Below, in pieces: positions 1,356-29,304 of a DNA stretch of 34,871 bases. This DNA is from a virus (taxonomy: Duplodnaviria > Heunggongvirae > Uroviricota > Caudoviricetes). The stretch lies in IMG/VR virus record IMGVR_UViG_2541047758_000018. One strand, given 5' to 3'. The position numbers were made by a program, and so were the translations under genes. Each line of letters begins with the position of its first letter. Position 1 is the first letter of the stretch. Under the pieces are notes generated by a model. That model was not told where the DNA came from. It saw nothing but the letters and a program-made list of their open reading frames with translations, and did not search any database.

Positions 1356-2321
1356 ATGAACGACTCTCATGAAACAACTGCGGTGCATAGAAATTTATGG
1401 CAGGAATCAGGTATCCCACCTTTGGACTACTGCACGATAGAGCGAGCATCAAAATTATTAAATTGTGAAATTGATGATATATGGCATTGGAAAGATAGAC
1501 TACATATAGACTTTTATGTCTATGCTGACTTTCTTGATTTCATTGAAGCTGATGCCACCATCCACTTCAAAAAAGATGCTGATTTTATAACTGATTTATT
1601 ACTTATGTACCCAGAAGAAGTAAGGTTTACATTTCCTTTTCTTATTACCAGCGCAAGCAACGAAGTTTATATCCCAGCATCTGAAAGCGGTGCTTATGAG
1701 CTATTTTATGCACATAAACCACTGACAGTTGAAGACAGAGACAATAAAAATGTTTTTGAACAAATTGGCAAAAACTCTTTTATTGTAAGAAAATCAATTG
1801 CATGTGGATTGTTGCGTGTACGCGGTAGTACAACACGACATTATCATTCACAAGAATGTGGAGAGCCATATGTGCGACTTGAAGCAACATTTGATTGTGA
1901 TCTATATAAATTCAAAATGCAAAGTTCCCAGATTCACCTGAGTAGCCTGTCAGATAAAAACATTTATATAACAAAGGCTGATTTAGAATACCTTCACGAC
2001 GCAAAGGTTAATGGAAGCTTTGACGCAGCTAAGAGCAAAAAACGATACGAAATGGCGGTAGAACAGGAACTAATACCTGAAATAAAAAATAGCAACCATA
2101 ATGCCGAGAGACATGCTGAAAACAGGGAAAAACTTTTCAAATCAGCAATATATCTTTTGTCAAAGTATCCTGATGAATGCCGTGGCAAAAAGAAAGAAAT
2201 AAGCCCTGAGAAGTGGCGGGATTGCATAGTGGCTCATAAAGACGAAATTCCACCGTTAGCAATCACAAATGAAGATGTGATTTTGAGACACTTACGTGCT
2301 GCCGCCAACGGTAAGGGGTAG
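1356..2321 (+). CDS. hypothetical protein, AT-rich orphan cargo gene in int-alpA hotspot
   Basis: 321 aa intact ORF. It is visibly AT-rich compared with the flanking int and alpA genes. A strong rho-independent terminator follows it. No motif was recognised. Confidence 0.6.
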   Translation: MNDSHETTAVHRNLWQESGIPPLDYCTIERASKLLNCEIDDIWHWKDRLHIDFYVYADFLDFIEADATIHFKKDADFITDLLLMYPEEVRFTFPFLITSASNEVYIPASESGAYELFYAHKPLTVEDRDNKNVFEQIGKNSFIVRKSIACGLLRVRGSTTRHYHSQECGEPYVRLEATFDCDLYKFKMQSSQIHLSSLSDKNIYITKADLEYLHDAKVNGSFDAAKSKKRYEMAVEQELIPEIKNSNHNAERHAENREKLFKSAIYLLSKYPDECRGKKKEISPEKWRDCIVAHKDEIPPLAITNEDVILRHLRAAANGKG

Positions 2322-2435: not shown

Positions 2436-2639
2436 ATGAACACCGACACTATTCCTACAAAAGGCTATATCAGACGCTTTCGCCTGGCTGAATTGCTGGG
2501 CGTTAGTGTATCCACCATCGACCGTAAAGTAAGAAACGGTTCACTACCACGTCCGGTAAAGCTGGGAGAAAAAATAACTGCGTTTGATGCGGTTGAGATT
2601 CACAACTGGCTGGCAGAACGCCGCGGGAAGGTGGCCTGA
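2436..2639 (+). CDS. alpA: AlpA-family phage transcriptional regulator/excisionase-like DNA-binding protein
   Basis: 67 aa with an HTH region RFRLAELLGVSVSTIDRKVRNGSLPRPVKLG...AFDAVEIHNWL typical of the AlpA/Prophage CP4-57 regulatory family. It sits in the canonical position downstream of a P4-type int. Confidence 0.85.
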   Translation: MNTDTIPTKGYIRRFRLAELLGVSVSTIDRKVRNGSLPRPVKLGEKITAFDAVEIHNWLAERRGKVA

Positions 2640-3070
2640 TGGAAAAGAAAAACCGCCCATTACAGGCGGCTAATTCAGATATTCGCGTATCTGATGTTAC
2701 GCCCCTTACAAAATCCCTTCAAGAACCAAAGCGCACACCGAAAAAGCATCGTGCCCGAGTCTATATGCTGCGTACTGGTATAGAGGGATGGACAGAAAAT
2801 GACATTCTTCGCTACTGCCGTCTGTCTTCTGGTCGTAACTATGCAACAGAGTTAGAACGCCAGCTTGGAATCACTCTGGAGCGTATCGACGAAAAGAATC
2901 CTGATGGTATCGGAACACACCTTCGCTACCGTTTCTCCTGCCGTGGTGATGTTCTGAAAGTGATCACTCATGTTAACCATCTTGCGAACATAAATGATCA
3001 CAACGGACTTTCTCAGCAGGAAATTGCCGACATTCTGAAACTCTACCCGGACGCGTTTAACGCCGCCTAA
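2639..3070 (+). CDS. hypothetical satellite early protein
   Basis: 143 aa ORF whose start overlaps the alpA stop (ATGA). No family recognised. Confidence 0.55.
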   Translation: MEKKNRPLQAANSDIRVSDVTPLTKSLQEPKRTPKKHRARVYMLRTGIEGWTENDILRYCRLSSGRNYATELERQLGITLERIDEKNPDGIGTHLRYRFSCRGDVLKVITHVNHLANINDHNGLSQQEIADILKLYPDAFNAA

Positions 3071-3916: not shown

Positions 3917-4091
3917 GCCAACAGGAACACCACAACCACAAAAACGCTACAAAGATGCCCACGGAGCACTCGTTACTGTCGAAAGCGTGTCTCACAACCG
4001 AGTGACGTTTTATCGCGACGGGTATCAATCGCCATGCGTACAACCGCTGGCACGTTTCATGAAGGAGTTCGCGGAGGTTAACAAATGCTAA
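3909..4091 (+). CDS. small hypothetical protein (60 aa), start overlaps upstream stop
   Basis: ATG at 3909 overlaps the TAA of the upstream gene. It is the internal Met of the listed 3822..4091 frame. Confidence 0.4.
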   Translation: MSKPTGTPQPQKRYKDAHGALVTVESVSHNRVTFYRDGYQSPCVQPLARFMKEFAEVNKC

Positions 4092-4559
4092 CCGCCCAGA
4101 AGAAGATATTTTCACTGGCTGGTATATCGCCAAAATCCAGCAATATGACAGCAAAGTCTGGCATTAATACAGCAGATACAAGCAAAGTTTATCATTTTCT
4201 GGTGGTAGGAGCGGATGCCTTAACTATGTCAGAAATTACGGTCGATGGTGTTAGCATTGAGAAGGTCAGCGGCTGCGCCAGAGAATTTCTGGTCGTAGAT
4301 GACCTGTTCTGCTCGCGTAGTGACTCCACAAAAATCTTCGTCCACGCGCGTGACGTTAACGAAATGAGCGCGATGTACTGTGCTTCTGGTTCTTCCAATA
4401 GTGAGTTTTCGGAGTCCATAAAAAAGAGCTTGCCGTTATGCGGCAACACGGTTTATGGTTATAAGGCACCTCATAAAACGGGTGCCGGGTTTCGCAGCCC
4501 GGAAATGTACGAGGCGACACATGACGCGCCGAGCGTCTTTTTTTGTGCCGTTAGCCAGA

Positions 4560-4746
4560 CTCACACTTTTTTCAGTGATGTGGTTATAATCCGCGTCGCT
4601 TGCAAAATTATGGTGGGCTGGACAGGGCAGCCGAAAGGCTGGCCGGTTTCCTTGTACGCCGGTACTGCGAACTCTGTTCAGTCCACCACCAGCGAGTTTC
4701 GCAGCTCCGGTGGTGGGAAGAATTCCCAGTACAAGGAGGCTGCCAC
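4560..4746 (+). promoter_or_regulatory. promoter-like -10 (TATAAT at about 4585-4590) plus GC-rich structured leader upstream of small gene
   Basis: One hairpin is CAGCC-GAAA-GGCTG (about 4628-4641). A second is an 8-bp stem CCACCACC(N18)GGTGGTGG (about 4683-4716). A strong SD AAGGAGG lies 7 nt before the ATG at 4747. Confidence 0.4.
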
Positions 4747-4941
4747 ATGCTGGCTACTACCCCTACCCAAAAACCGCAATTTATCTGGATTATCGCCGCA
4801 GTTCGCCGCGATTGCCCGACAATTACCGCCAAAATTCATCATATTGCTGCCGAGTCTGAACGCGATGCTCGCCGTTCTCTGGTGCGCGATCACGTCTGCT
4901 TTTTTGCTGGTCGTATCCGCATGGAGGTGGCACATGATTAA
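4747..4941 (+). CDS. small hypothetical protein (64 aa)
   Basis: Internal Met of the listed 4600..4941 frame. An AAGGAGG SD lies 7 nt upstream. Confidence 0.5.
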   Translation: MLATTPTQKPQFIWIIAAVRRDCPTITAKIHHIAAESERDARRSLVRDHVCFFAGRIRMEVAHD

Positions 4942-5152
4942 AACCTACGATGTGCATATGGACCCCCTCGAACGCACAAGCCAGATCATCACACTGACAG
5001 AAGTGATTAATGACATTCTGGTGAGCAACTCTCCCTCACGAGACGAAAAACTGAAGGCGTTACTCGCGATATTGGATCTCGCCGTTCGTGACGTTCATTT
5101 CCTGCTGGAAGGTGGCGAAATGCCGGTAAAAACGGGGGCAACCAATGAATAA
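4934..5152 (+). CDS. small hypothetical protein (72 aa)
   Basis: ATG preceded by GGAGGTGG. It overlaps the stop of the previous gene and is the 3' part of the doubtful 4085..5152 long ORF. Confidence 0.45.
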   Translation: MIKTYDVHMDPLERTSQIITLTEVINDILVSNSPSRDEKLKALLAILDLAVRDVHFLLEGGEMPVKTGATNE

Positions 5153-10634: not shown

Positions 10635-11096
10635 ATGGAACTAAAATTTATTGATAACCCTGTGCGATTACAGGCCTTTCTTAACGAGCCAGGCAATACC
10701 GAAAATATTGTTGAGCCGGGGCACACGTACTACATCAAGCCTGATGCGGTATATCTCGGCATCTACGAAGGATTAGTGCTGGCTGGCGTTCATGAAGTGC
10801 GTAACTTCTGGCATAGCGTTGTTGAATGCCATGCGGTGTACGACCCCGGATTCCGTGGTGAATATGCACTGCAAGGGCATCGATTATTCTGCAAATGGCT
10901 TCTCGAAAACTCACCATTCCTTAACAGCATCACTATGGTTCCTGACACCACGAAATACGGACGGGCAATTATCCGTTTGCTTGGCGCTACCCGTGTTGGT
11001 CACCTTGATGATGCTTATATCAGATGTGGTAAACCCGTCGGCGTAACGCTTTATCAGTTAACTCGGCAACAATATAAGGAATTCAGCGAATGTTAA
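10635..11096 (+). CDS. hypothetical phage protein (153 aa), first gene of ejection-protein-like module
   Basis: ORF track; overlaps start of next gene. Confidence 0.55.
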   Translation: MELKFIDNPVRLQAFLNEPGNTENIVEPGHTYYIKPDAVYLGIYEGLVLAGVHEVRNFWHSVVECHAVYDPGFRGEYALQGHRLFCKWLLENSPFLNSITMVPDTTKYGRAIIRLLGATRVGHLDDAYIRCGKPVGVTLYQLTRQQYKEFSEC

Positions 11097-11767
11097 TTAC
11101 CCATATAGCTCATAAACATCTCAATCGTGCCGTATACGAAAAAGGCGGTGATGGTGGTGCCTCTAAAGCTCAGGCGAAGGCCCAGCAGCAGGCAATTGAT
11201 TTGCAGCGCGAGCAGTGGAATACGGTGATGAATAATCTCAAGCCGTATGCAGAAGTCGGATTGCCTGCTTTACAACAACTGCAAGGACTGATGACTCTGG
11301 AAGGGCAGAATAAAGCCGCGAATGATTTCTTTGGTTCTGGTTTATATAAAACACAGGCAGATCAGGCCCGTTATCAGAACCTTGTCTCAGCAGAAGCTAC
11401 CGGGGGGCTTGGCTCAACAGCTACCAGTAACCAGTTATCTTCCATTGCGCCCATGCTTTATAACAATTGGCTCAGTGGGCAAATGCAAAATTATGGAAAC
11501 CTGCTAAATGTCGGGATGAATGCGGCATCAGGGCAGGCAACGGCAGGGCAAAACTACGCCAATAATACCGGACAACTCTTGCAGGGGCTTGGCGCTATTC
11601 GTGCAGGTCAGGCGCAGCAGCCATCCAGTCTTGCGCGTGGTATTGGTGGGGCAGCATCAGGCGCTTTAGCGGGTGCGCAACTTGGTTCCGTTGTTCCTGG
11701 AATAGGAACTGCGGCCGGCGCTATTGGTGGTGGGCTTATTGGTCTTGTTGGGGGGCTTGGATTCTAA
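11090..11767 (+). CDS. Gly/Ala/Gln-rich phage ejection (DNA-transfer/internal virion) protein-like, 225 aa
   Basis: N-terminal KGGDGGASKAQAKAQQQAIDLQREQW, a low-complexity G/A/Q body and a C-terminal hydrophobic GGLIGLVGGLGF tail. Size and order resemble the small ejection protein of P22-like phages. Confidence 0.55.
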   Translation: MLITHIAHKHLNRAVYEKGGDGGASKAQAKAQQQAIDLQREQWNTVMNNLKPYAEVGLPALQQLQGLMTLEGQNKAANDFFGSGLYKTQADQARYQNLVSAEATGGLGSTATSNQLSSIAPMLYNNWLSGQMQNYGNLLNVGMNAASGQATAGQNYANNTGQLLQGLGAIRAGQAQQPSSLARGIGGAASGALAGAQLGSVVPGIGTAAGAIGGGLIGLVGGLGF

Positions 11768-13086
11768 TGGCGACATGGCAACTTGGCGGGCTGCCTAGCA
11801 TGGCACCGCAAAATGATAATGCTCCTCGTTCTTCCGTTCCTCAGCCTGTGCAGTATCAGCAGCAGCCAAACGTAGGTTTAATGGCGCTACAGGGGCTAAG
11901 AGGCGTTGCTGAGATTAATCAGCAGGCGCAAATTTCCCAGCAGTTAAAAGAATATCAGGCACGGTTGGGTAGTGCGGTAGCTAATAATGATCGTGTTGGC
12001 GTGCAGAAGTTAATGGCCCAGTATCCCCAGTTTATGGCTGATTCTCAAAAACAGATGGGATTCATTGATGCTGAGCAAAATCGACAGACCGCTGACGCTG
12101 CCATGAATCTGCGTCTTGCGTCACAAACTGGAGATCCACTGACCATGCAGAAGGCCATTCAGCAGGCAAATCCAGTATTACAGCGATTTGGTCTTCCTGC
12201 TGAAGAGGTTTATCAGTCTTGGCAGAATGACCCACAGGAATTCAACAGAATCACTGACCTCATCCACCTCCATGCTGATCCAAATAGTTACTTTAGTGTT
12301 CAAGAGAAGCAGCAAGGGCAGAGCATTGCACAGCAGAACGCAGATACATCCGCATATAATGCTCAGGTTAATGCGGAACAGGGTAATCGACGTCTCGATA
12401 TGGAGCAGTTCAAAGTCCTATCCGATAACCAACTACGCACGAGAGAAATGGTTCTGAAAGCACGACTTGGACGTGCTCAAAATGACATCGAGAGAGACAA
12501 GCTCAATGCTGAACTGAGCAAGGTACAGCAGGCGAAAGTGGAGAAGATGAACGATAAAATTAATACTGTTGCAGGTAACATCGACTCCTTGAACTCTGCG
12601 CTTGAAGTGGGTCATGAACTGGCGGGAATTGTAGGGAAACATCCTTCGGCCGTTACCCGCTCGCAGAACTATAACCCCCTGACGCTGGGGTTTGGATTCC
12701 TTCCTGATGTAGCAGAAGACACACGAAGCCTACGCGCCAAAGCTGATGAATACAACCTAAAGGTTATTCTGCCTAGCCTCAAAGGGACTTTTGGCTCTAA
12801 CCCAACCGAAGGGGAAAGGGCTGCCCTTATGCAATCTCAAAATGGCATTAAGTCAGCAACCAGCAATGAGGCATTTTTGCGAGAGTTGAATAAAGCGCAG
12901 GACGTAATTATTCGAATGCAGAAACGACAGATTGCCGGGCTCGGTATTCCTGTAACCAAATCTAAGGACGAAGAAACTGATACCAAAATGCTGTTGCAGG
13001 ATCCTTCACTAGTTAAGGATTATGTGACCGCACATGGCTATCTGCCGGAAAGTTACTATCAGGCAAAACTTAAGGGATGGCAATGA
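11767..13086 (+). CDS. Gln-rich phage ejection/internal virion protein-like, 439 aa
   Basis: ATGG overlap with the upstream gene. It is Q-rich with predicted coiled-coil. It is the middle gene of a three-gene injection-protein-like set. Confidence 0.55.
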   Translation: MATWQLGGLPSMAPQNDNAPRSSVPQPVQYQQQPNVGLMALQGLRGVAEINQQAQISQQLKEYQARLGSAVANNDRVGVQKLMAQYPQFMADSQKQMGFIDAEQNRQTADAAMNLRLASQTGDPLTMQKAIQQANPVLQRFGLPAEEVYQSWQNDPQEFNRITDLIHLHADPNSYFSVQEKQQGQSIAQQNADTSAYNAQVNAEQGNRRLDMEQFKVLSDNQLRTREMVLKARLGRAQNDIERDKLNAELSKVQQAKVEKMNDKINTVAGNIDSLNSALEVGHELAGIVGKHPSAVTRSQNYNPLTLGFGFLPDVAEDTRSLRAKADEYNLKVILPSLKGTFGSNPTEGERAALMQSQNGIKSATSNEAFLRELNKAQDVIIRMQKRQIAGLGIPVTKSKDEETDTKMLLQDPSLVKDYVTAHGYLPESYYQAKLKGWQ

Positions 13087-15414
13087 TGGCACAACTGACA
13101 GAAAAACAGAAAGCCTATTCCCGTCATCTCGATGAAAAATATGGTTTCCCATCAGGGACGATGGAAACATTAGTTGGCAATGAATCTAGTGGTAACGGAA
13201 GTGCCGAGTCACCGAAAGGAGCTAGAGGATTTGCTCAACTGATGCCCTCAGTAATGAGTGATGCTGGTTATCGTGGAACAGATCCGCGCTCACTGCCATT
13301 TGAAAAGCAAATGGATATCGCAGCAAACCATCTCAATAAAGGAATGAAGCGATTTGGTGATATAGGTATGGCATTGGCTGGGTATAATTCTGGCTATGCT
13401 CGTATTAATGCCGTCAGAAACGGTAAATCTACACTGCCAGATGAAACGGCTAATTACGTAAGTAAATTTGCAGATGCTGGAATAATCCCTGATGACAGTG
13501 AAATCTTGCAGTTTGCACAAACCAGTCAACATCGCAATCTTCAGCAGCCTGACTACTCAGAGCTTGATAAAGAAATCTCTCAGGTGGGAGATATTTCTGC
13601 ATGGGAAGCAAAACGTCAGCAATTTAAGAACATAGAAGCAGGACTACCAACAGCCAGTTCATGGGAGCAGAAAAGAGCTCAGTTTCTCGCCGATGAAAAT
13701 GCCGGGGAACCGCAGCAGCAAGTAGCCAAGTCTAACCTTAATCCTGAGATGGAATATCTTTCGCCAGGACTGAAAGCTGCGCCAGAGCAGATGGCCAGAG
13801 GGATTGCTAATATACCGTTTGATGTAATGGACGCAGGCGTGGGGGTAGTCAATGCGGCGCAATCAGCCGGAGCATGGGCAGCTCAGAAGCTTGGTGTGGG
13901 TGATGGCACATACACGCCCATATCACCTGTCTTTCGCCCAGTAGACCAACCTACAGATCCATACGCGCAGGCTGGTGAGCAGCTAGCACCTTACCTTATT
14001 ACAGGATTAGGTGCAGGAAAGGCAGCTACCGCAGCTTCTTCAGTTGCCAACGCTCCACGTGCTGAACGTGCGGCCACAAAGGTGGCTAGTATGTTGGCAG
14101 AAAACCTGCCAGGTACATTGGTGAACGCCCAAAAGAACGGGCAGATCAGCCCAGAAGACCTAGCAAAAGAGACAGGTATTGGCCTAGCAGGATCGCTAGG
14201 AGCACGCGCTTTAATAAAGAGCGGACAGACAGCCAGTGACGTAATGCGAGATGTATTGCGGAGTAATACAAATCAATCAGGCCATGTGTTAGGGGCAGCA
14301 AATACTCTGGAAACCGCCAATGATGTATCGAAAGCAGCGCGTTCTGCCGTAGGCCGAGAGCATATCGCATCGCAGGCATCAAACGTCAGAGATGATGTCG
14401 CTAAGGCGGCGAAAATCACTGGTATTAATATCAACACCCTGACGCCTGGAATGCGCTCAGGTAGTCGTGGAATTGCCCAAGCAGAAGGTGTTCTGGCATC
14501 AACTCCTGGGAATGTTCAGGATGCTCACCTTACGGCCTTCAATGAAATATCCTCAAAGTTGAATAAGCAGTTGTCTGATTTCGGTGCTGAGTCTGGAAGC
14601 GCATCAGAAAAAAGCGCAGCAATTAAAGAGCGCATCATCGCGAGCCTCAGTGATATGAAAACAGCAGAGAATATGGCATGGGCAGAACTGCGAAGCACGA
14701 TGCCACGCGAAAGGATGAAAATGAGTAATGGGATGGCTGTCGTCCAAGCAGAAAAAGCAGCCAATGTTCCACTCAGCCCGGAGATGAAACAGTTTCAGGC
14801 TGCCAACAACCAAGGTGGCGGCATAACCTTCGACGGGATGAAGGCATGGCGTGCTAAGTTTGCTGATGCTGAACAAGCAAACACCCGGGCAGGTAAGGCC
14901 AATGCCGCCCGGATTGCCGGAGAAATGCGCAGAGCTATCACTGATGACATGCGCATCATGGCTGAAAAAGGAAACTTCCTCACAGAATGGCAGAAAGCTA
15001 ACGATCTCTCTAAAAGTTACATTATCGCCAAACAAAATGCCGAATCTGTTTTTGGTCGAGATCTCGCATCAGACGCTATGGTAAGAAAAGGTGCCGATAC
15101 GCTTAAGGCATCCGCAAACACTGGAACGGGAGCTTTTCACCGTCTTATCTCCGCGCTGCCGGAAGCAGAACGCCAACCTGCAATAGCATCTATTCTTCAG
15201 CATGCTGTGGCGCAGGGAGAGAAGGGAGGAATCGGTGAAGAGTCAGGTATCCAGTATTTTGCCAAGCTCATGACCCAGCAGAATGTAAACGCCATCAGTC
15301 GTCATGCGCCAGATCTCGGTAGAATGATGAAAGAGTTCGGTGTACTCGCTAAAGCCAGTACCAGACCGCAGCGATACGTAGAGCGCACGGGAAGAACAAC
15401 TGAGGCTCTCAAAA
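13077..15414 (+). pseudogene. large ejection/internal virion protein with N-terminal SLT lytic transglycosylase domain, 3' truncated by IS911
   Basis: SLT family-1 motifs are present: NESSGN...SPKGARGFAQLMP and the ALAGYNSGYARI (AYNxG) motif. The reading frame runs into the IS911 inverted repeat at about 15415, so the listed stop at 15569 is IS-derived. Confidence 0.75.
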
Positions 15415-15444
15415 TGAAGTGGTCAACAAAAACTGGCCACCGAG

Positions 15445-16628
<1,184 letters not shown>

Positions 16629-23595: not shown

Positions 23596-24828
23596 TTACT
23601 TCAGACAGTGAGTTTCCCATTCCTTGACTGCAAATGTATCCATCATACCTGAAATATAGTCAACCACTGCTCGTTTTTTGCTGATTTTAAATATATAGGA
23701 ATCTGGTTGGGGTAAGGTGAATTTAAGTTCAGGAGGCAGAAATTTATAATTCTCTCCTTCATTGTAAAAGTCATATAAATCCCTGATTATTTTATTTCCC
23801 CTGAACTCATAGGTGAGGATATTACGTTTTCGCATGATGACTTTAAAGAGAAGTTTTTTGAGCCCTTCGGATAACGCATTCAGTTTCCCGAATCCCAGTT
23901 CCTGAAAACCATTCAGGTTCGTTACTACAGAAATATCTGCAACGAGGCGATTGACAATATTTGAAGTTAACTCCTTGCGGAATATGATGGCAAATTCTTC
24001 TGAGGTTTTCAGTAAGTTAGCCTGAAAAGCGGTGTTTCTCGACTGAGTAACGATTTCCCTGAACTGTTCCCTCGCTCCCCGGAATTCGTCAGAAATCTGA
24101 AACTCATATTCAATATCTTCAATCGTGACCATGTTCCTGCTAAGGGCATCTTCCAGGTCATGCGCGGCATAGGCAATCTCATCCGCGAGATCCATTATCT
24201 GCGCATCAATCGTTTTCTCTCCGGGATTCAGATCGAGCTGATTTTCAGCAAGCAGGTTAATGTAAAAATAGTAATCATCATCATAAATGAACTTGCCGGC
24301 AGTAGCTGCAGCGCGGGGGATGGGATACTTAACAACCGAAAGTAAACTACGGTGAGTCAGATTTAATCCGTTGCAGTATGAAAATTTCTTCTCCAGTTTT
24401 CTCAGGATACGTAGCGCCTGTGCATTGCCTTCATAGCCGCCGATTTCTTCAGACAGTTCATTAAGCAGTTTTTCACCGGAATGACCGAAAGGAGGATTTC
24501 CGATGTCATGCGCCAGCGCTGCCAGTTCAACCACCACCGGGTTAACCAGTTTGAGGTCTGACGCGATACTTCGGGCGATCTGAGCAACCTCAAGACTGTG
24601 CGTTAATCTGTTTCTGTTGAATTTTTCAGGATCAATTTCAAAAAGTTGCATCTTTCCCTGCAGCCTGCGAAATGATGATGAATACAGAATACGCGCATAA
24701 TCCCGTTGATAATTATCCCGGCTTCTTGTTTCACCATCGGGGGACGGGTGCTCTCTGGTATCAGCAAGCGCACTGATAAGTTTTTGTTCCTGCTCTTGCG
24801 CAAATTCTTTTAATTCATTGCAGTACAT
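23596..24828 (-). CDS. dGTPase-family HD-domain deoxynucleoside triphosphate triphosphohydrolase (short form, about 410 aa)
   Basis: Contains NRNRLTHSLEVAQIARSIA and AHDIGNPPFGHSGE (cf. E. coli Dgt RTRLTHSMEVQQVGRYIA and MHDIGNPPFGHFGE), DLADEIAYAAHDLEDA, and an N-terminal RDYARILYSSSFRRLQGKMQ. The internal ATG at 24828 has an AAGGAAG SD. Confidence 0.85.
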   Translation of the reverse strand: MYCNELKEFAQEQEQKLISALADTREHPSPDGETRSRDNYQRDYARILYSSSFRRLQGKMQLFEIDPEKFNRNRLTHSLEVAQIARSIASDLKLVNPVVVELAALAHDIGNPPFGHSGEKLLNELSEEIGGYEGNAQALRILRKLEKKFSYCNGLNLTHRSLLSVVKYPIPRAAATAGKFIYDDDYYFYINLLAENQLDLNPGEKTIDAQIMDLADEIAYAAHDLEDALSRNMVTIEDIEYEFQISDEFRGAREQFREIVTQSRNTAFQANLLKTSEEFAIIFRKELTSNIVNRLVADISVVTNLNGFQELGFGKLNALSEGLKKLLFKVIMRKRNILTYEFRGNKIIRDLYDFYNEGENYKFLPPELKFTLPQPDSYIFKISKKRAVVDYISGMMDTFAVKEWETHCLK

Positions 24829-24978
24829 ATTTCTTCCTTTCTGGAGCATGTTACCAAATCAGAATACCGGATGAACAAAACTGGTGGCTACATCCTGTAG
24901 GGATTATGTATTAGTAAGCTCTGGCCATTAGTGCCATTTCAGGTTATGTGATCCTACTCACGTAATATGGACACAGGC

Positions 24979-26297: not shown

Positions 26298-27278
26298 ATG
26301 ACTCTTTTGGTAACGGCTGAGTGTGTTGACGATCTGATAAACGATGTTCATCAAGCTATCCTAGCGGATGGACTCAGTAACGATCCTACAAAAGGATCAA
26401 CTCTAGAGATTCTTGGTGCCTATCTTGTCCTTACCGACCCCCGCCGAAGAATAAGTAGAACAGAATCCCGAGGAAAACTAATTAGTTGCTTAGGTGAATT
26501 TCTGTGGTATCTCTCAGCTCAGAACGATCTTGAGTTTATAAAACACTTCATACCACGTTACGCTGAATCCGCTGAGTCAGATGGGAAAATACATGGTGGT
26601 TACGGGCCACGGTTGTTTAATATGCGTGGTTTATATAATCAGCTAAAAAATGTCATCAACCTTTTGCAGGAGAAAAAACCTACCAGACGTGCAGTAATAC
26701 AGCTTTTCGATGCCTCAGACTTGGTGCCCTCAAAAACTGAACAGCGAGAATACGTAGATATTCCTTGTACAATATCTATGCAGTTTATTGTCAGATGTGA
26801 AGAGCTGCATCTATTTGTTTGTATGCGTTCTAACGATGCCTTTATGGGGCTGCCTCATGATGTATTTGCGTTCACGATGCTACAGGAATTAGTTGCCCGC
26901 TTGATAGGATGCGAATTGGGTCACTATCATCACTTTGTATCCAGCCTACATCTCTATAAAAATGATTTAGAAAAAGTGAAGGCTCTTCAGAAAGAGGGGT
27001 TCATGAGCACCCTACCAGTCATGGGATCGATGCCTGAAATGCATTCCTTAGATGATATCTTACCCCTGCTTGAGGCAGAAAAAGCTCTTCGAGAGAATAA
27101 GGAATTTGATATTGACACTACTTCCTTGAATGACTACTGGAAGGATTTATTGCGTATATTAAAAATCCACTTTTTGTTACGTTCACATACACCCAACCAC
27201 AAAGGACTAGCCTTCCAAGAGTTGGCTGCAATGAAAAATCAGGAATATCGGTTTATTTTTGAAGGAAGACTACAATGA
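26298..27278 (+). CDS. thymidylate synthase-family enzyme (ThyA/dCMP-hydroxymethylase fold) with dCMP-type active-site signature
   Basis: Four motif matches support the TS fold. HGGYGPRLFNMRG matches TS GDLGPVYGFQWR. RRAVIQLFDASDL matches RRIIVSAWNPxDL. DIPCTISMQFIV matches the catalytic LPPCHALCQFYV. CMRSNDAFMGLPHDVFAFTML matches [21 protein letters not shown]. The specificity Asn of PFN is replaced by Asp (PHD), as in dCMP hydroxymethylases. Confidence 0.75.
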   Translation: MTLLVTAECVDDLINDVHQAILADGLSNDPTKGSTLEILGAYLVLTDPRRRISRTESRGKLISCLGEFLWYLSAQNDLEFIKHFIPRYAESAESDGKIHGGYGPRLFNMRGLYNQLKNVINLLQEKKPTRRAVIQLFDASDLVPSKTEQREYVDIPCTISMQFIVRCEELHLFVCMRSNDAFMGLPHDVFAFTMLQELVARLIGCELGHYHHFVSSLHLYKNDLEKVKALQKEGFMSTLPVMGSMPEMHSLDDILPLLEAEKALRENKEFDIDTTSLNDYWKDLLRILKIHFLLRSHTPNHKGLAFQELAAMKNQEYRFIFEGRLQ

Positions 27279-28219
27279 AAAGACATAATCAAATCAGTCA
27301 GCTGGTTAGTAATTTGCAAAATTTTAGCCGCAATGAACACAACCTAAATGGTCTAAGTTCTCCTGCCTGCTTTGATGTTTTAGCCTGTCAGATTATCGAC
27401 AGTATACGTCGTATACGCTATGTGGAAACTCTTGCATTACGGACCGATTATATGACTCCGTTACGAAAAGAGCCGAATTCTGATGTTTTTGATCCTCTCC
27501 GCGCTGCCTGCCTTTATCTTCGTGACAACAATTACGATGAAGCCTGCTGGCTGGTTTTCCTTGCCACACATTTCGGCAAGAGTAACAAAACCGGCTGGAT
27601 TTTGTGTCGAGATATATACAGTGGACTCGGTACACAAACGTGGACATGGGATACGATAACTGATGACTTTGCTGCTTTTGAACAATGGTTCGCCAGCGTC
27701 TCTGATGAGTTGACAGCTAACAGTAGCCTAAGACAATATGGTAACCATCGGAAATATGAAACGAAGAAATATCACTCTCGTCGTTCAATACCTGCGGTTT
27801 TTCGCTCTTACATCGGATTCATTGGTGCTACACACAGTCATGAGGCTAGGTTTGCAGAGGCCAAGAGCTTTTCATCTTCACCAGAATCTTTATTCGAACT
27901 ATTGTATTCAGGGCTAAATGCCGTGATCTCATTTGGACGAACCGCAAAATTTGATTACCTAACTATGCTCAAGAAAACGGGACTTCTGGATGTAGAGCCG
28001 GGTCATGCTTTTCTGAATGGAGCAACCGGGCCCCTTCAAGGAAGCCGGCTACTTTTCAGCAATAGCCGGACTGCTGGTGACACAATAGACGTATTGAATG
28101 AAAAACTAGCTGACCTTGCGGCAATTATTCCTGCACCCTACTTGAGAATGCAGGTTATTGAAGATGCGTTGTGCAACTGGCAGAAATCACCTGACCGTTA
28201 TGTCTATTTCGGCGGCTGA
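27275..28219 (+). CDS. unknown 314 aa partner protein, translationally coupled (ATGA) to TS-like gene
   Basis: No confident family. There is a weak helix-hairpin-helix-like segment ISFGRTAKFDYLTMLKKTGLLDV. It may be a DNA-binding/base-modifying or glycosylase-like protein. Confidence 0.55.
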   Translation: MKRHNQISQLVSNLQNFSRNEHNLNGLSSPACFDVLACQIIDSIRRIRYVETLALRTDYMTPLRKEPNSDVFDPLRAACLYLRDNNYDEACWLVFLATHFGKSNKTGWILCRDIYSGLGTQTWTWDTITDDFAAFEQWFASVSDELTANSSLRQYGNHRKYETKKYHSRRSIPAVFRSYIGFIGATHSHEARFAEAKSFSSSPESLFELLYSGLNAVISFGRTAKFDYLTMLKKTGLLDVEPGHAFLNGATGPLQGSRLLFSNSRTAGDTIDVLNEKLADLAAIIPAPYLRMQVIEDALCNWQKSPDRYVYFGG

Positions 28220-28221
28220 TA

Positions 28222-29304
28222 TCAGACGATATCTTCTTTACGGAATCTCACTTTAAACCGATTAAGGTGAGAAAAAGGTATATTACCTTCATGCTGCAAA
28301 TATCCCAGTACGATCCCTTTGGATACCCCCATTTTCCTAGCTAACCGGATGATCTCTTTCCAATGCCGGACACCATAGCGACTAAGTTGCTGCCGGTATT
28401 CTTCTGGGATAAGAACATCAACGGCAAATTTATCTGCTTCCTTTTCCTCTTCCGACGAAAGACTATCTTTACCTTCTACGCGAACTCGGACAGCTTCATG
28501 CAAGATGAGATGCCCAATCTCATGAAACAGCGTAAACCAAAAATGGTCATCGGTCAGATAACGGAAACTCATGACTAGGGTTGCGCGATCTGGTGTAAAA
28601 AAGCAGGTAGCACCACTTGCCCGACATCCCTTTGGCGTTGGCAACACAACGAGAGAAACTCCAGCAGTGGCGAGAAGGTCGCGAATGTAAGGGATAAAAA
28701 TCCTCATGTCGGGTTCATTTGTAGCTTTGCGCAGTTCTGGCAACAATGCTATCAGCACCTCTTTATCCCATACAGCACAGTTTTGGTTTGAGGTAAGTTG
28801 TGCAGCCCTAGTCAGCCACACCAAATCGGCCATAGGCTCGGTTGCCAGATTAAGAGATTTACGAAAAGCGACCAAAGGAGCATCTGACTGAATTTTATAA
28901 AAAAAATCATTGACGGAATTTATTCCGAAAAACGATAGGCAGTGCTGGAATTTACTTTCCCGAGTTGTAGTTTTGGGGATCCAACCAAACTCCATCATAT
29001 CACGTACAGGCAATGATTCGAGCCAATCATTATTCACTTTCTCGAGGTATCCAATTTGCTGGCGATAAGCGACTTCGCGCTTGATCCAGAAGTCTGTCGA
29101 TACGTTGAATAACTCCTCAAGCTTACAAGCCAGAGACTCATTGAGTCGGATTTTTCCTTCAAGAAGTTGCTGACCCCGGATAAGAGACAATCCAATCCTC
29201 TTACTCAGTTCTTCACCAGAAAGCCCATGTTCATCCATTAGATCTATAATTGTATCACCGGGTGGAGATACCCAGTCAGGCTGGAAGTCCTGCGTAACTA
29301 TCAT
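28222..29304 (-). CDS. HigA-like antitoxin/regulator: N-terminal XRE-family HTH fused to ImmA/IrrE (M78, HEIGH) metallopeptidase domain
   Basis: The N-terminus PGDTIIDLMDEHGLSGEELSKRIGLSLIRGQQLLEGKIRLNESLACKLEELFNVSTDFW is a HigA-type HTH. The C-terminus FHEIGHLILHE...EEEKEADKFAVDVLIP is an ImmA/IrrE zinc-peptidase motif. An ATGA overlap joins it to the upstream small gene. Confidence 0.75.
   Translation of the reverse strand: MIVTQDFQPDWVSPPGDTIIDLMDEHGLSGEELSKRIGLSLIRGQQLLEGKIRLNESLACKLEELFNVSTDFWIKREVAYRQQIGYLEKVNNDWLESLPVRDMMEFGWIPKTTTRESKFQHCLSFFGINSVNDFFYKIQSDAPLVAFRKSLNLATEPMADLVWLTRAAQLTSNQNCAVWDKEVLIALLPELRKATNEPDMRIFIPYIRDLLATAGVSLVVLPTPKGCRASGATCFFTPDRATLVMSFRYLTDDHFWFTLFHEIGHLILHEAVRVRVEGKDSLSSEEEKEADKFAVDVLIPEEYRQQLSRYGVRHWKEIIRLARKMGVSKGIVLGYLQHEGNIPFSHLNRFKVRFRKEDIV

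Follow-up and report, generated by a model that had tools for sequence, protein, structure and literature searches.

The window, by which we mean the whole analysed stretch of 34,871 nucleotides, carries on its plus strand an open reading frame for a protein of 321 amino acids (positions 1356 to 2321, stop codon included). This ORF is a real gene. Besides its place in the ORF list, it is identical to a RefSeq CDS, WP_001000003.1 (hypothetical protein, E. coli EPSSH018), and its coding status is backed by full-length homologues of 58-73% identity in Salmonella, Enterobacter and Cedecea. Direct reading of the sequence located a Shine-Dalgarno sequence, AAGGTG, on the same strand at 1345-1350, 5 nt upstream of the ATG. 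Pfam searches identified the product of the upstream neighbour as a P4-type tyrosine integrase (Arm-DNA-bind_3, Phage_int_M and Phage_integrase) and that of the downstream neighbour as AlpA. We hereafter refer to the gene as X, and to its position between int and alpA as the slot.

The GC content of X is 0.376 (GC3, 0.304), lower than the values of int (0.493), alpA (0.500) and the whole window (0.471). AT-richness was common to every slot gene examined, with GC of 0.30-0.42 against 0.45-0.57 for the adjacent int. Downstream of X, a terminator-like sequence was detected on the plus strand at 2337-2370, consisting of a hairpin with a 10-bp stem and a 4-nt loop (2337-2360) followed by a T run. 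The fold z-score was -5.0 for this hairpin and the alpA leader taken together, and an equivalent hairpin was present downstream of the slot-gene homologues at loci L002, L005, L007, L009 and L025. The first-pass annotation had described a gene inserted between a P4-type int and alpA, strikingly lower in GC than its neighbours and with a strong terminator of its own, and on all these points it was correct.

Both flanks of X carry RNA or DNA elements. The gap of 95 nt between int and X holds a structured RNA, the int-alpA RNA (Rfam RF02996), which forms a three-way junction at 1269-1335 on the plus strand (60.6 bits against a gathering score of 35.8, E=1e-11; fold z-score, -3.0). It is an Rfam motif already known but uncharacterised. 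At L005, L007, L009 and L021 the same RNA directly precedes the slot gene, and at L017 it precedes a DUF6387 gene; it was absent at the empty slots of L016 and L018, and at L002, where the gap is 18 nt. Because it lies upstream of slot occupants and is missing from empty slots, the int-alpA RNA behaves as a leader of the slot gene, which points to a role as 5' leader or cis-regulator and not to an independent sRNA. On the other side of X, the alpA leader contains an inverted repeat, CCCGTAAC(23 nt)GTTACGGG, at 2393-2431 on the plus strand, of which the 8-bp arms (2393-2400 and 2424-2431) enclose the alpA Shine-Dalgarno site. Pairing of the arms is maintained despite changes on both sides at L009, L032 and L020, and the repeat follows the type of alpA, not the slot allele. 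Its role could be that of a palindromic operator or of an RNA hairpin blocking the translation of alpA.

In complete E. coli genomes, the element is located between yicC and dinD. The gene order is int, X, alpA, orf143, antA, a DUF4222 gene, an ORF of the 'ash family' and a DUF927/Toprim primase gene, followed by P22-type ejection-protein genes and cargo. Integrase, AlpA and primase genes come in the order that marks Gram-negative PICIs, with no capsid, tail or lysis genes, and the P22-like ejection-protein genes are the only downstream genes of phage structural type. By position and content, the element is an EcCIMP1-like phage-inducible island. With EcCIMP1, a PICI of E. coli, it shares the backbone of alpA, antA, DUF927 primase, P22-like ejection-protein genes and PerC; the two differ in that the integrase of EcCIMP1 is of the tRNA-Thr type and its slot contains only a tiny ORF, whereas the element in the window lies next to yicC and carries the 321-aa gene. 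Mobilisation of EcCIMP1 by the P22-like phage Kapi1, including helper induction and packaging, has been shown (PMC11773190), and the P22-like ejection genes indicate that the helper of the element in the window is likewise probably a P22-like podovirus. Within the annotated 355-aa 'ash family' ORF (4085-5152), isrK and C4 antisense RNAs were detected on the plus strand at 4466-4543 and 4606-4693, with scores of 69 and 81 bits. Given this RNA immunity module of P1/P4 type inside it, the long ORF is probably not all protein-coding.

Exchange of the slot gene as a cassette

Up to nt 1360, and then once more from nt 2393, the window and E. coli ECONIH5 share 99.1% identity. Between these two breakpoints, 1 kb of ECONIH5 encodes a different, 281-aa member of the same protein family and carries its own terminator. 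For a second allele of 316 aa, the breakpoints are at 1241 and 2102, the latter inside the coding sequence of the conserved C-terminal domain. These comparisons showed that the CDS of X forms, with its leader RNA and terminator, a self-contained cassette that is exchanged by homologous recombination. The left-hand limit of the exchange is the conserved int end together with the int-alpA RNA, and the right-hand limit is the alpA leader hairpin, the inverted repeat noted above, with the L028 breakpoint at 2393.

The alleles were then counted in a sample of 5,426 complete E. coli genomes. The yicC-type integrase was present in 335 genomes, the 321-aa allele in 77, the 281-aa allele in 38, the 316-aa allele in 41, an allele of 307 aa with the family N-terminus and a different C-terminus in 34, an allele of 293 aa with only a weak N-terminal match to the family (E=0.005) in 24, and an allele of 216 aa without detectable relation to the family in 112. 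These six alleles total about 326 as against 335 integrase-bearing genomes, adjacency to the integrase being confirmed for part of the matches only. The family of X accounts for 190 of the about 326 E. coli slot alleles and for nearly all cases outside E. coli. Loci retaining both flanks span 2249-2371 bp, the slot being neither empty nor enlarged. Throughout about 35 E. coli and about 20 other contexts, the slot always contained one gene of 216-434 aa; in the same contexts no recognised defence system was found in the slot, and the alternative occupants were without PADLOC match. Int (99% identical) and the att site are the same for alleles with almost no common sequence and even for unrelated proteins, and AlpA is identical (WP_001090781.1) across differing slot alleles.

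The unrelated occupants are the DUF6387 protein and the 216-aa family, for neither of which homology to the family of X was detected. The 216-aa allele (L019, L020 and L031) is the commonest slot allele in E. coli. It overlaps the integrase stop codon by 4 nt, as does iolg of the PICMI satellites with int, and it is uniformly 216 aa long, with 65-89% identity across genera, being far less variable than the 321-aa family.

The same backbone was also found without X. Elements at tRNA-Thr next to proA carry a different integrase and a near-identical backbone from alpA to the DUF927 primase gene (98-99.5% for orf143). Their similarity to the window starts only at nt 2629, and int, slot and alpA travel as one module relative to the remaining backbone. 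The slot of these elements is either empty, with a gap of about 400 bp (L016 and L018), or occupied by the DUF6387 gene (L017); a search of the gaps at L016 and L018 gave no remnants of X. EcCIMP1, also at the tRNA-Thr site, has only an ORF of about 67 aa in the slot, and it excises and transduces (PMC11773190). The existence of the same backbone without the gene shows that X is dispensable for the backbone.

Where X or a homologue is present, its position is nearly invariable. The order int, X, alpA was observed in 23 of the 24 contexts with enough sequence to judge, and in all 14 loci of close relatives; the only exception is a stand-alone Klebsiella member (L033, one record examined). In the distant relatives P0068, P0074, P0133 and P0172, int and X are followed by alpA or by a divergent HTH gene, and these elements carry different primases, one of them together with a P2-type capsid gene. 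The positional link holds for relatives with profile E-values of 1e-12 to 1e-28. It is kept also in a Pantoea element in which the integrase is 27% identical and AlpA is divergent. At loci whose integrases are 85-91% identical, only part of the slot protein can be matched, with 31-61% identity.

The interval between int and alpA had been interpreted in the first-pass annotation as a hotspot for variable cargo. Its variability across satellites was evident from the ECONIH5 swap, at least six E. coli alleles, the unrelated occupants and the empty tRNA-Thr slots, but a general cargo or defence hotspot does not fit with the single gene found each time, the one dominant family and the position kept in very distant satellites. 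The opposite case considered there, that X might turn out to be a core satellite gene without variability, was likewise half right: homologues do occupy this position in most related elements, yet their variability is extreme rather than absent.

Family and architecture of the slot protein

The exact 321-aa protein is present on at least 1000 contigs. A word-indexed search yielded 48 homologues of about 280-365 aa, and homologues were found in Escherichia, Salmonella, Enterobacter, Klebsiella, Cedecea, Pectobacterium, Pantoea, Serratia and other genera. A contig scan using the back-translated C-terminal motif alone gave 5 loci. A profile search against 1.84 billion representatives gave 600 cluster representatives at E<=1e-3 and 164 at E<=1e-10, all named matches being from Enterobacterales. 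Of the description in the first-pass annotation, the ORF, the low GC, the terminator and the int and alpA neighbours stood, but the gene is thus no orphan. The statement that no domain is recognisable did hold for sequence libraries: Pfam, NCBIfam and PHROG gave no assignment for the query, for 69 diverse members or for short members. Altogether, X is one allele of a large, unnamed, fast-varying and satellite-specific family located downstream of the integrase.

No credible PADLOC match was obtained for any of the family members searched (the query and 68 others). The query itself matched PDC-S31 over 84 residues (E=0.002, 15.5 bits); membership was rejected and the match taken as chance, because it is common to none of the 68 other members. 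A search of 50,697 phage records gave no homologue of the slot protein. Matches labelled as plasmid fell into three groups, i.e. mislabelled chromosomes, two circular Klebsiella records of about 22 kb, and the stand-alone chromosomal member of Klebsiella; one of the two circular records was examined, and showed the same order of int, X and alpA. The stand-alone member (L033 4986-5807; K. pneumoniae, NZ_CP129740.1) is a 273-aa protein encoded between a WbuC-like gene and cynR, with neither int nor alpA nearby. It matches the family profile at E=5e-31 and has a different C-terminus, and its N-terminal match recurs in six other Klebsiella records. This gene may be a domesticated or stranded copy.

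The AlphaFold2 model of the 321-aa protein was of moderate quality (mean pLDDT 74). When residues 58-321 were modelled alone, pLDDT was 49 and the middle region collapsed in the absence of the N-terminus. The model, combined with alignments and charge, divides the protein into four segments, all encoded on the plus strand: an N-terminal winged-helix domain of MerR/Xis/AlpA-like fold with an acidic 'recognition' helix, as seen in the model (aa 19-58; 1410-1529); a hypervariable, beta-rich and acidic middle region of variable length (aa 59-206; 1530-1973); a helical linker with a 'DLxIT' motif, from alignment and model (aa 207-248; 1974-2099); and a conserved basic C-terminal domain of four helices with the motif NAERHAxNRE...YPDECRG.KKEISPEKW...H..EIPPL (aa 249-321; 2100-2318). 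The first-pass annotation had proposed a structure and fold search; Foldseek with this model against PDB and the viral BFVD gave no significant match, the middle region included, nor did a sequence-profile search of PDB, and these structure and PDB profile searches revealed no resemblance to known folds, ArdA and Ocr among them.

The N-terminus has the beta-alpha-alpha-beta-beta winged-helix fold of MerR, Xis and AlpA. Neither the query nor the 69 family members reached the Pfam threshold of HTH_17 or Phage_AlpA, and the alignment of the family profile with AlpA by hhalign, though in register, was weak (20% probability only). Among 69 members, the mean charge was -2.1 for helix 2 and -1.7 for the winged-helix domain, the putative recognition helix being acidic and not basic; AlpA proteins have a charge of +3 to +8 and pI of about 10.5. 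Because this helix is acidic, sequence-specific DNA binding by the N-terminus is doubtful. The slot protein also differs from HTH_17 proteins of the MerR/Xis/AlpA type in its lack of Pfam match, its negative net charge, its five times greater length and its two extra domains. Across the family, the mean pI is 5.6, and the mean charge is -11 (down to -25) for the middle region, with only -5 in the query, and +2.5 for the C-terminal domain.

Conservation is distributed very unevenly. Among 47 relatives, pairwise identity was 76% on average (minimum 57%) for the C-terminal domain, as against medians of 31% for the winged helix and 16% for the middle region. The C-terminal domain contains 23 invariant columns in the 47 sequences, while G151 is the sole near-invariant residue of the middle region. 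The family alignments showed no conserved catalytic-type residues outside the C-terminal domain and no enzymatic motifs. A zinc-binding C-terminal domain was rejected on the ground that C290 is not kept across the wider family, and a HEPN-type Rx4-6H motif was rejected on sequence inspection. The wider family retains the C-terminal motif ER.A.NRE...P.EC...W...I..H, some members having alternative C-termini. These observations showed that the slot protein is composed of two functional modules, a variable module (the acidic winged helix and the hypervariable acidic beta-rich region) and a constant, basic, helical C-terminal domain.

At the level of sequence, the C-terminal domain is conserved better than Int or AlpA, from which it follows that its target may be one conserved across Enterobacterales. 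In the Pantoea element described above it is still about 60% identical to that of the query. Since the domain is kept alongside so divergent an integrase and AlpA, its partner probably lies outside the int/alpA module. The partner of the variable part is in turn expected to lie outside the island, because this part varies although Int, AlpA, att and the remainder of the island are 99% identical.

Candidate roles of the slot gene

Our preferred reading, to which we give a probability of about 0.4, is that X is an exchangeable phage-recognising cassette with a role in immunity or interference. An accessory cassette for phage recognition is favoured because the gene is dispensable, exchanged as a cassette and AT-rich. 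The lack of conserved catalytic-type residues in the variable part agrees with it. The integrated satellite would express the slot gene along with int or immediately after it. Its variable module would bind a phage-encoded partner, which is more likely a protein than a specific DNA sequence as the helix is acidic, and the conserved C-terminal domain would act on an Enterobacterales-wide target, be it a factor of the host or a conserved component of the phage. The result might be immunity or interference that is specific to the allele and directed against non-helper or competing phages, with the repertoire of alleles setting the range of phages affected.

Defence hotspots of P4 and P2 elements have reportedly been described by Rousset et al. 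in 2022. Like these hotspots and the immune genes at the 5' end of PICIs, the slot is variable, AT-rich, located between conserved satellite genes, exchanged by recombination and dispensable. The hotspots, however, contain many recognisable and often multi-gene systems and can be empty, while the slot contains one gene of 216-434 aa, mostly from one dominant family, and only six single-gene alleles were found in this integrase lineage. A passage in PMC11364771, citing Fillol-Salom 2022, places immune systems at the 5' or 3' ends of PICIs, and this we counted in favour of an immunity cassette. Several findings stand against it. A single-gene slot that is never empty within the integrase lineage looks more like a required component than optional cargo. 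The family was not seen in other defence hotspots and, the stand-alone Klebsiella gene apart, is confined to the position after int. Nor does it offer a PADLOC match, a homologue among the phage records or an effector chemistry that could be named. Finally, deletion of the gene at the same position in PICMI satellites abolished excision (PMC10803314).

The last point leads to a rival explanation, which we regard as possible but unlikely, that X is a component of the integrase/AlpA switch, a counterpart of PICMI iolg/icg, needed for helper-induced excision or induction. X would then be made constitutively together with Int, with its variable module detecting the cognate helper phage and licensing the switch. 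In the PICMIs, minimalist satellites of Vibrionaceae, iolg/icg is a single gene between int and alpA; it was reported to be essential for excision and has no known function (PMC10803314). X lies as a single gene in the same position, and both are lone genes directly after int and before alpA, occur in most elements in many dissimilar families, and are probably co-expressed with int. For PICMI, the slot genes belong to 13 unrelated families, and deletion of iolg in PICMI115 led to loss of excision, packaging and transduction (PMC10803314). The likeness is one of position and organisation, all named members of the family of X being from Enterobacterales. X differs from iolg, which overlaps int by 4 nt, in the long gap with its structured RNA that separates it from int in the window, and in that close backbones exist without the gene. 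Also in agreement with a switch component are the order int, X, alpA, which held throughout the satellite contexts examined, even with different primases or the 27%-identical integrase, the behaviour of int, slot and alpA as one module with similarity to tRNA-Thr elements beginning only after it, the absence of an empty slot in about 335 E. coli genomes, and the N-terminal fold, which is that of the excision factors Xis, AlpA and TorI. The gap between int and X is as short as 13-21 nt at L002, L015 and L026, and the 216-aa allele overlaps int.

Other observations weigh against this rival. Dissimilar alleles and even unrelated proteins share Int, AlpA and att, whereas a specific recombination cofactor should co-vary with them; as neither Int nor AlpA co-varies with the slot gene, the role of a specific cofactor of either is disfavoured. 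The winged helix is acidic. Elements with an empty slot are functional (PMC11773190), and the iolg deletion of PICMI was complemented only by int and iolg together, so that a polar effect on int is possible (PMC10803314). The strict linkage to int in divergent satellites, the single-gene slot that is never empty and the PICMI phenotype nevertheless keep a switch or helper-sensor model alive.

We consider it conceivable, on balance rather doubtful, that the family of X is the missing helper-phage sensor of this class of Gram-negative satellites: the hypervariable acidic module would bind a helper-specific phage protein, and the C-terminal domain would license the excision-induction switch of Int and AlpA. 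If so, the alleles would define the mobilising phage, X would correspond in function to PICMI iolg, and its regulatory leader would be the int-alpA RNA. The six E. coli alleles on 99%-identical backbones make up a ready-made series for deciding between an anti-phage cassette and a determinant of helper specificity. If the gene proves to be neither, the int-alpA RNA still gains a genomic role as leader of the slot gene.

In SaPI maps, stl adjoins int and lies just upstream of the rightward regulator. By analogy, X could be an Stl-like master repressor acting at the alpA promoter, with silencing relieved upon binding of a helper protein to the variable domain, a possibility that we consider improbable. 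X shares with Stl this map position, an HTH-type fold at the N-terminus and high diversity between otherwise similar islands, and its basic conserved C-terminal domain could bind nucleic acid. The model fits poorly because the putative recognition helix is acidic, the alpA leader is invariant across alleles and the element already has RNA immunity of P1/P4 type (C4 and isrK). The operator does not co-vary with the protein: the alpA leader and its repeat remain constant while the winged helix, and even the type of C-terminus, change completely (L021 and L028 compared with the window). X differs from Stl also in that it is not divergently transcribed, being co-directional with alpA and insulated from it by the terminator, and identical backbones occur without it. 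Another accessory role, as an acidic DNA-mimic or anti-restriction protein guarding the incoming satellite or as a modulator of a host regulator, is very improbable: the strong acidity of the family, the absence of enzymatic motifs and a C-terminal domain conserved across genera as if for a host target would suit it, but the middle region of the query is only mildly charged, known folds such as ArdA and Ocr gave no similarity, and hypervariability suits a variable partner better than a conserved restriction enzyme.

A large unannotated family of Enterobacterales is now defined at the int-alpA position, with an architecture of sensor plus constant domain, and natural allele swaps in otherwise isogenic elements as well as the link to an orphan Rfam motif are now described.

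Several further genes of the window were noted. The start of orf143 (2639-3070, plus strand) overlaps the alpA stop codon; the gene is 77-99% conserved in all related islands, newer RefSeq annotation lists it as 'PM1773 family protein', and no Pfam domain scores above threshold. The region 10635-15569 (plus strand) contains four consecutive genes related to the P22 ejection apparatus or injectosome, encoding DUF2824, gp7, a gp20-like translocase and an 830-aa SLT-domain protein. Further downstream, at 26298-28219 (plus strand), a thymidylate-synthase-like gene precedes one for aGPT-Pplase3/ADDT, an amino acid:DNA transferase. Such a pair is known from thymidine hypermodification in phages and is unusual in a bacterial chromosome. 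Near this pair, an HD/dGTPase-like gene (23596-24849) and a gene for an M78 peptidase with HTH (28222-29304) are located on the minus strand.
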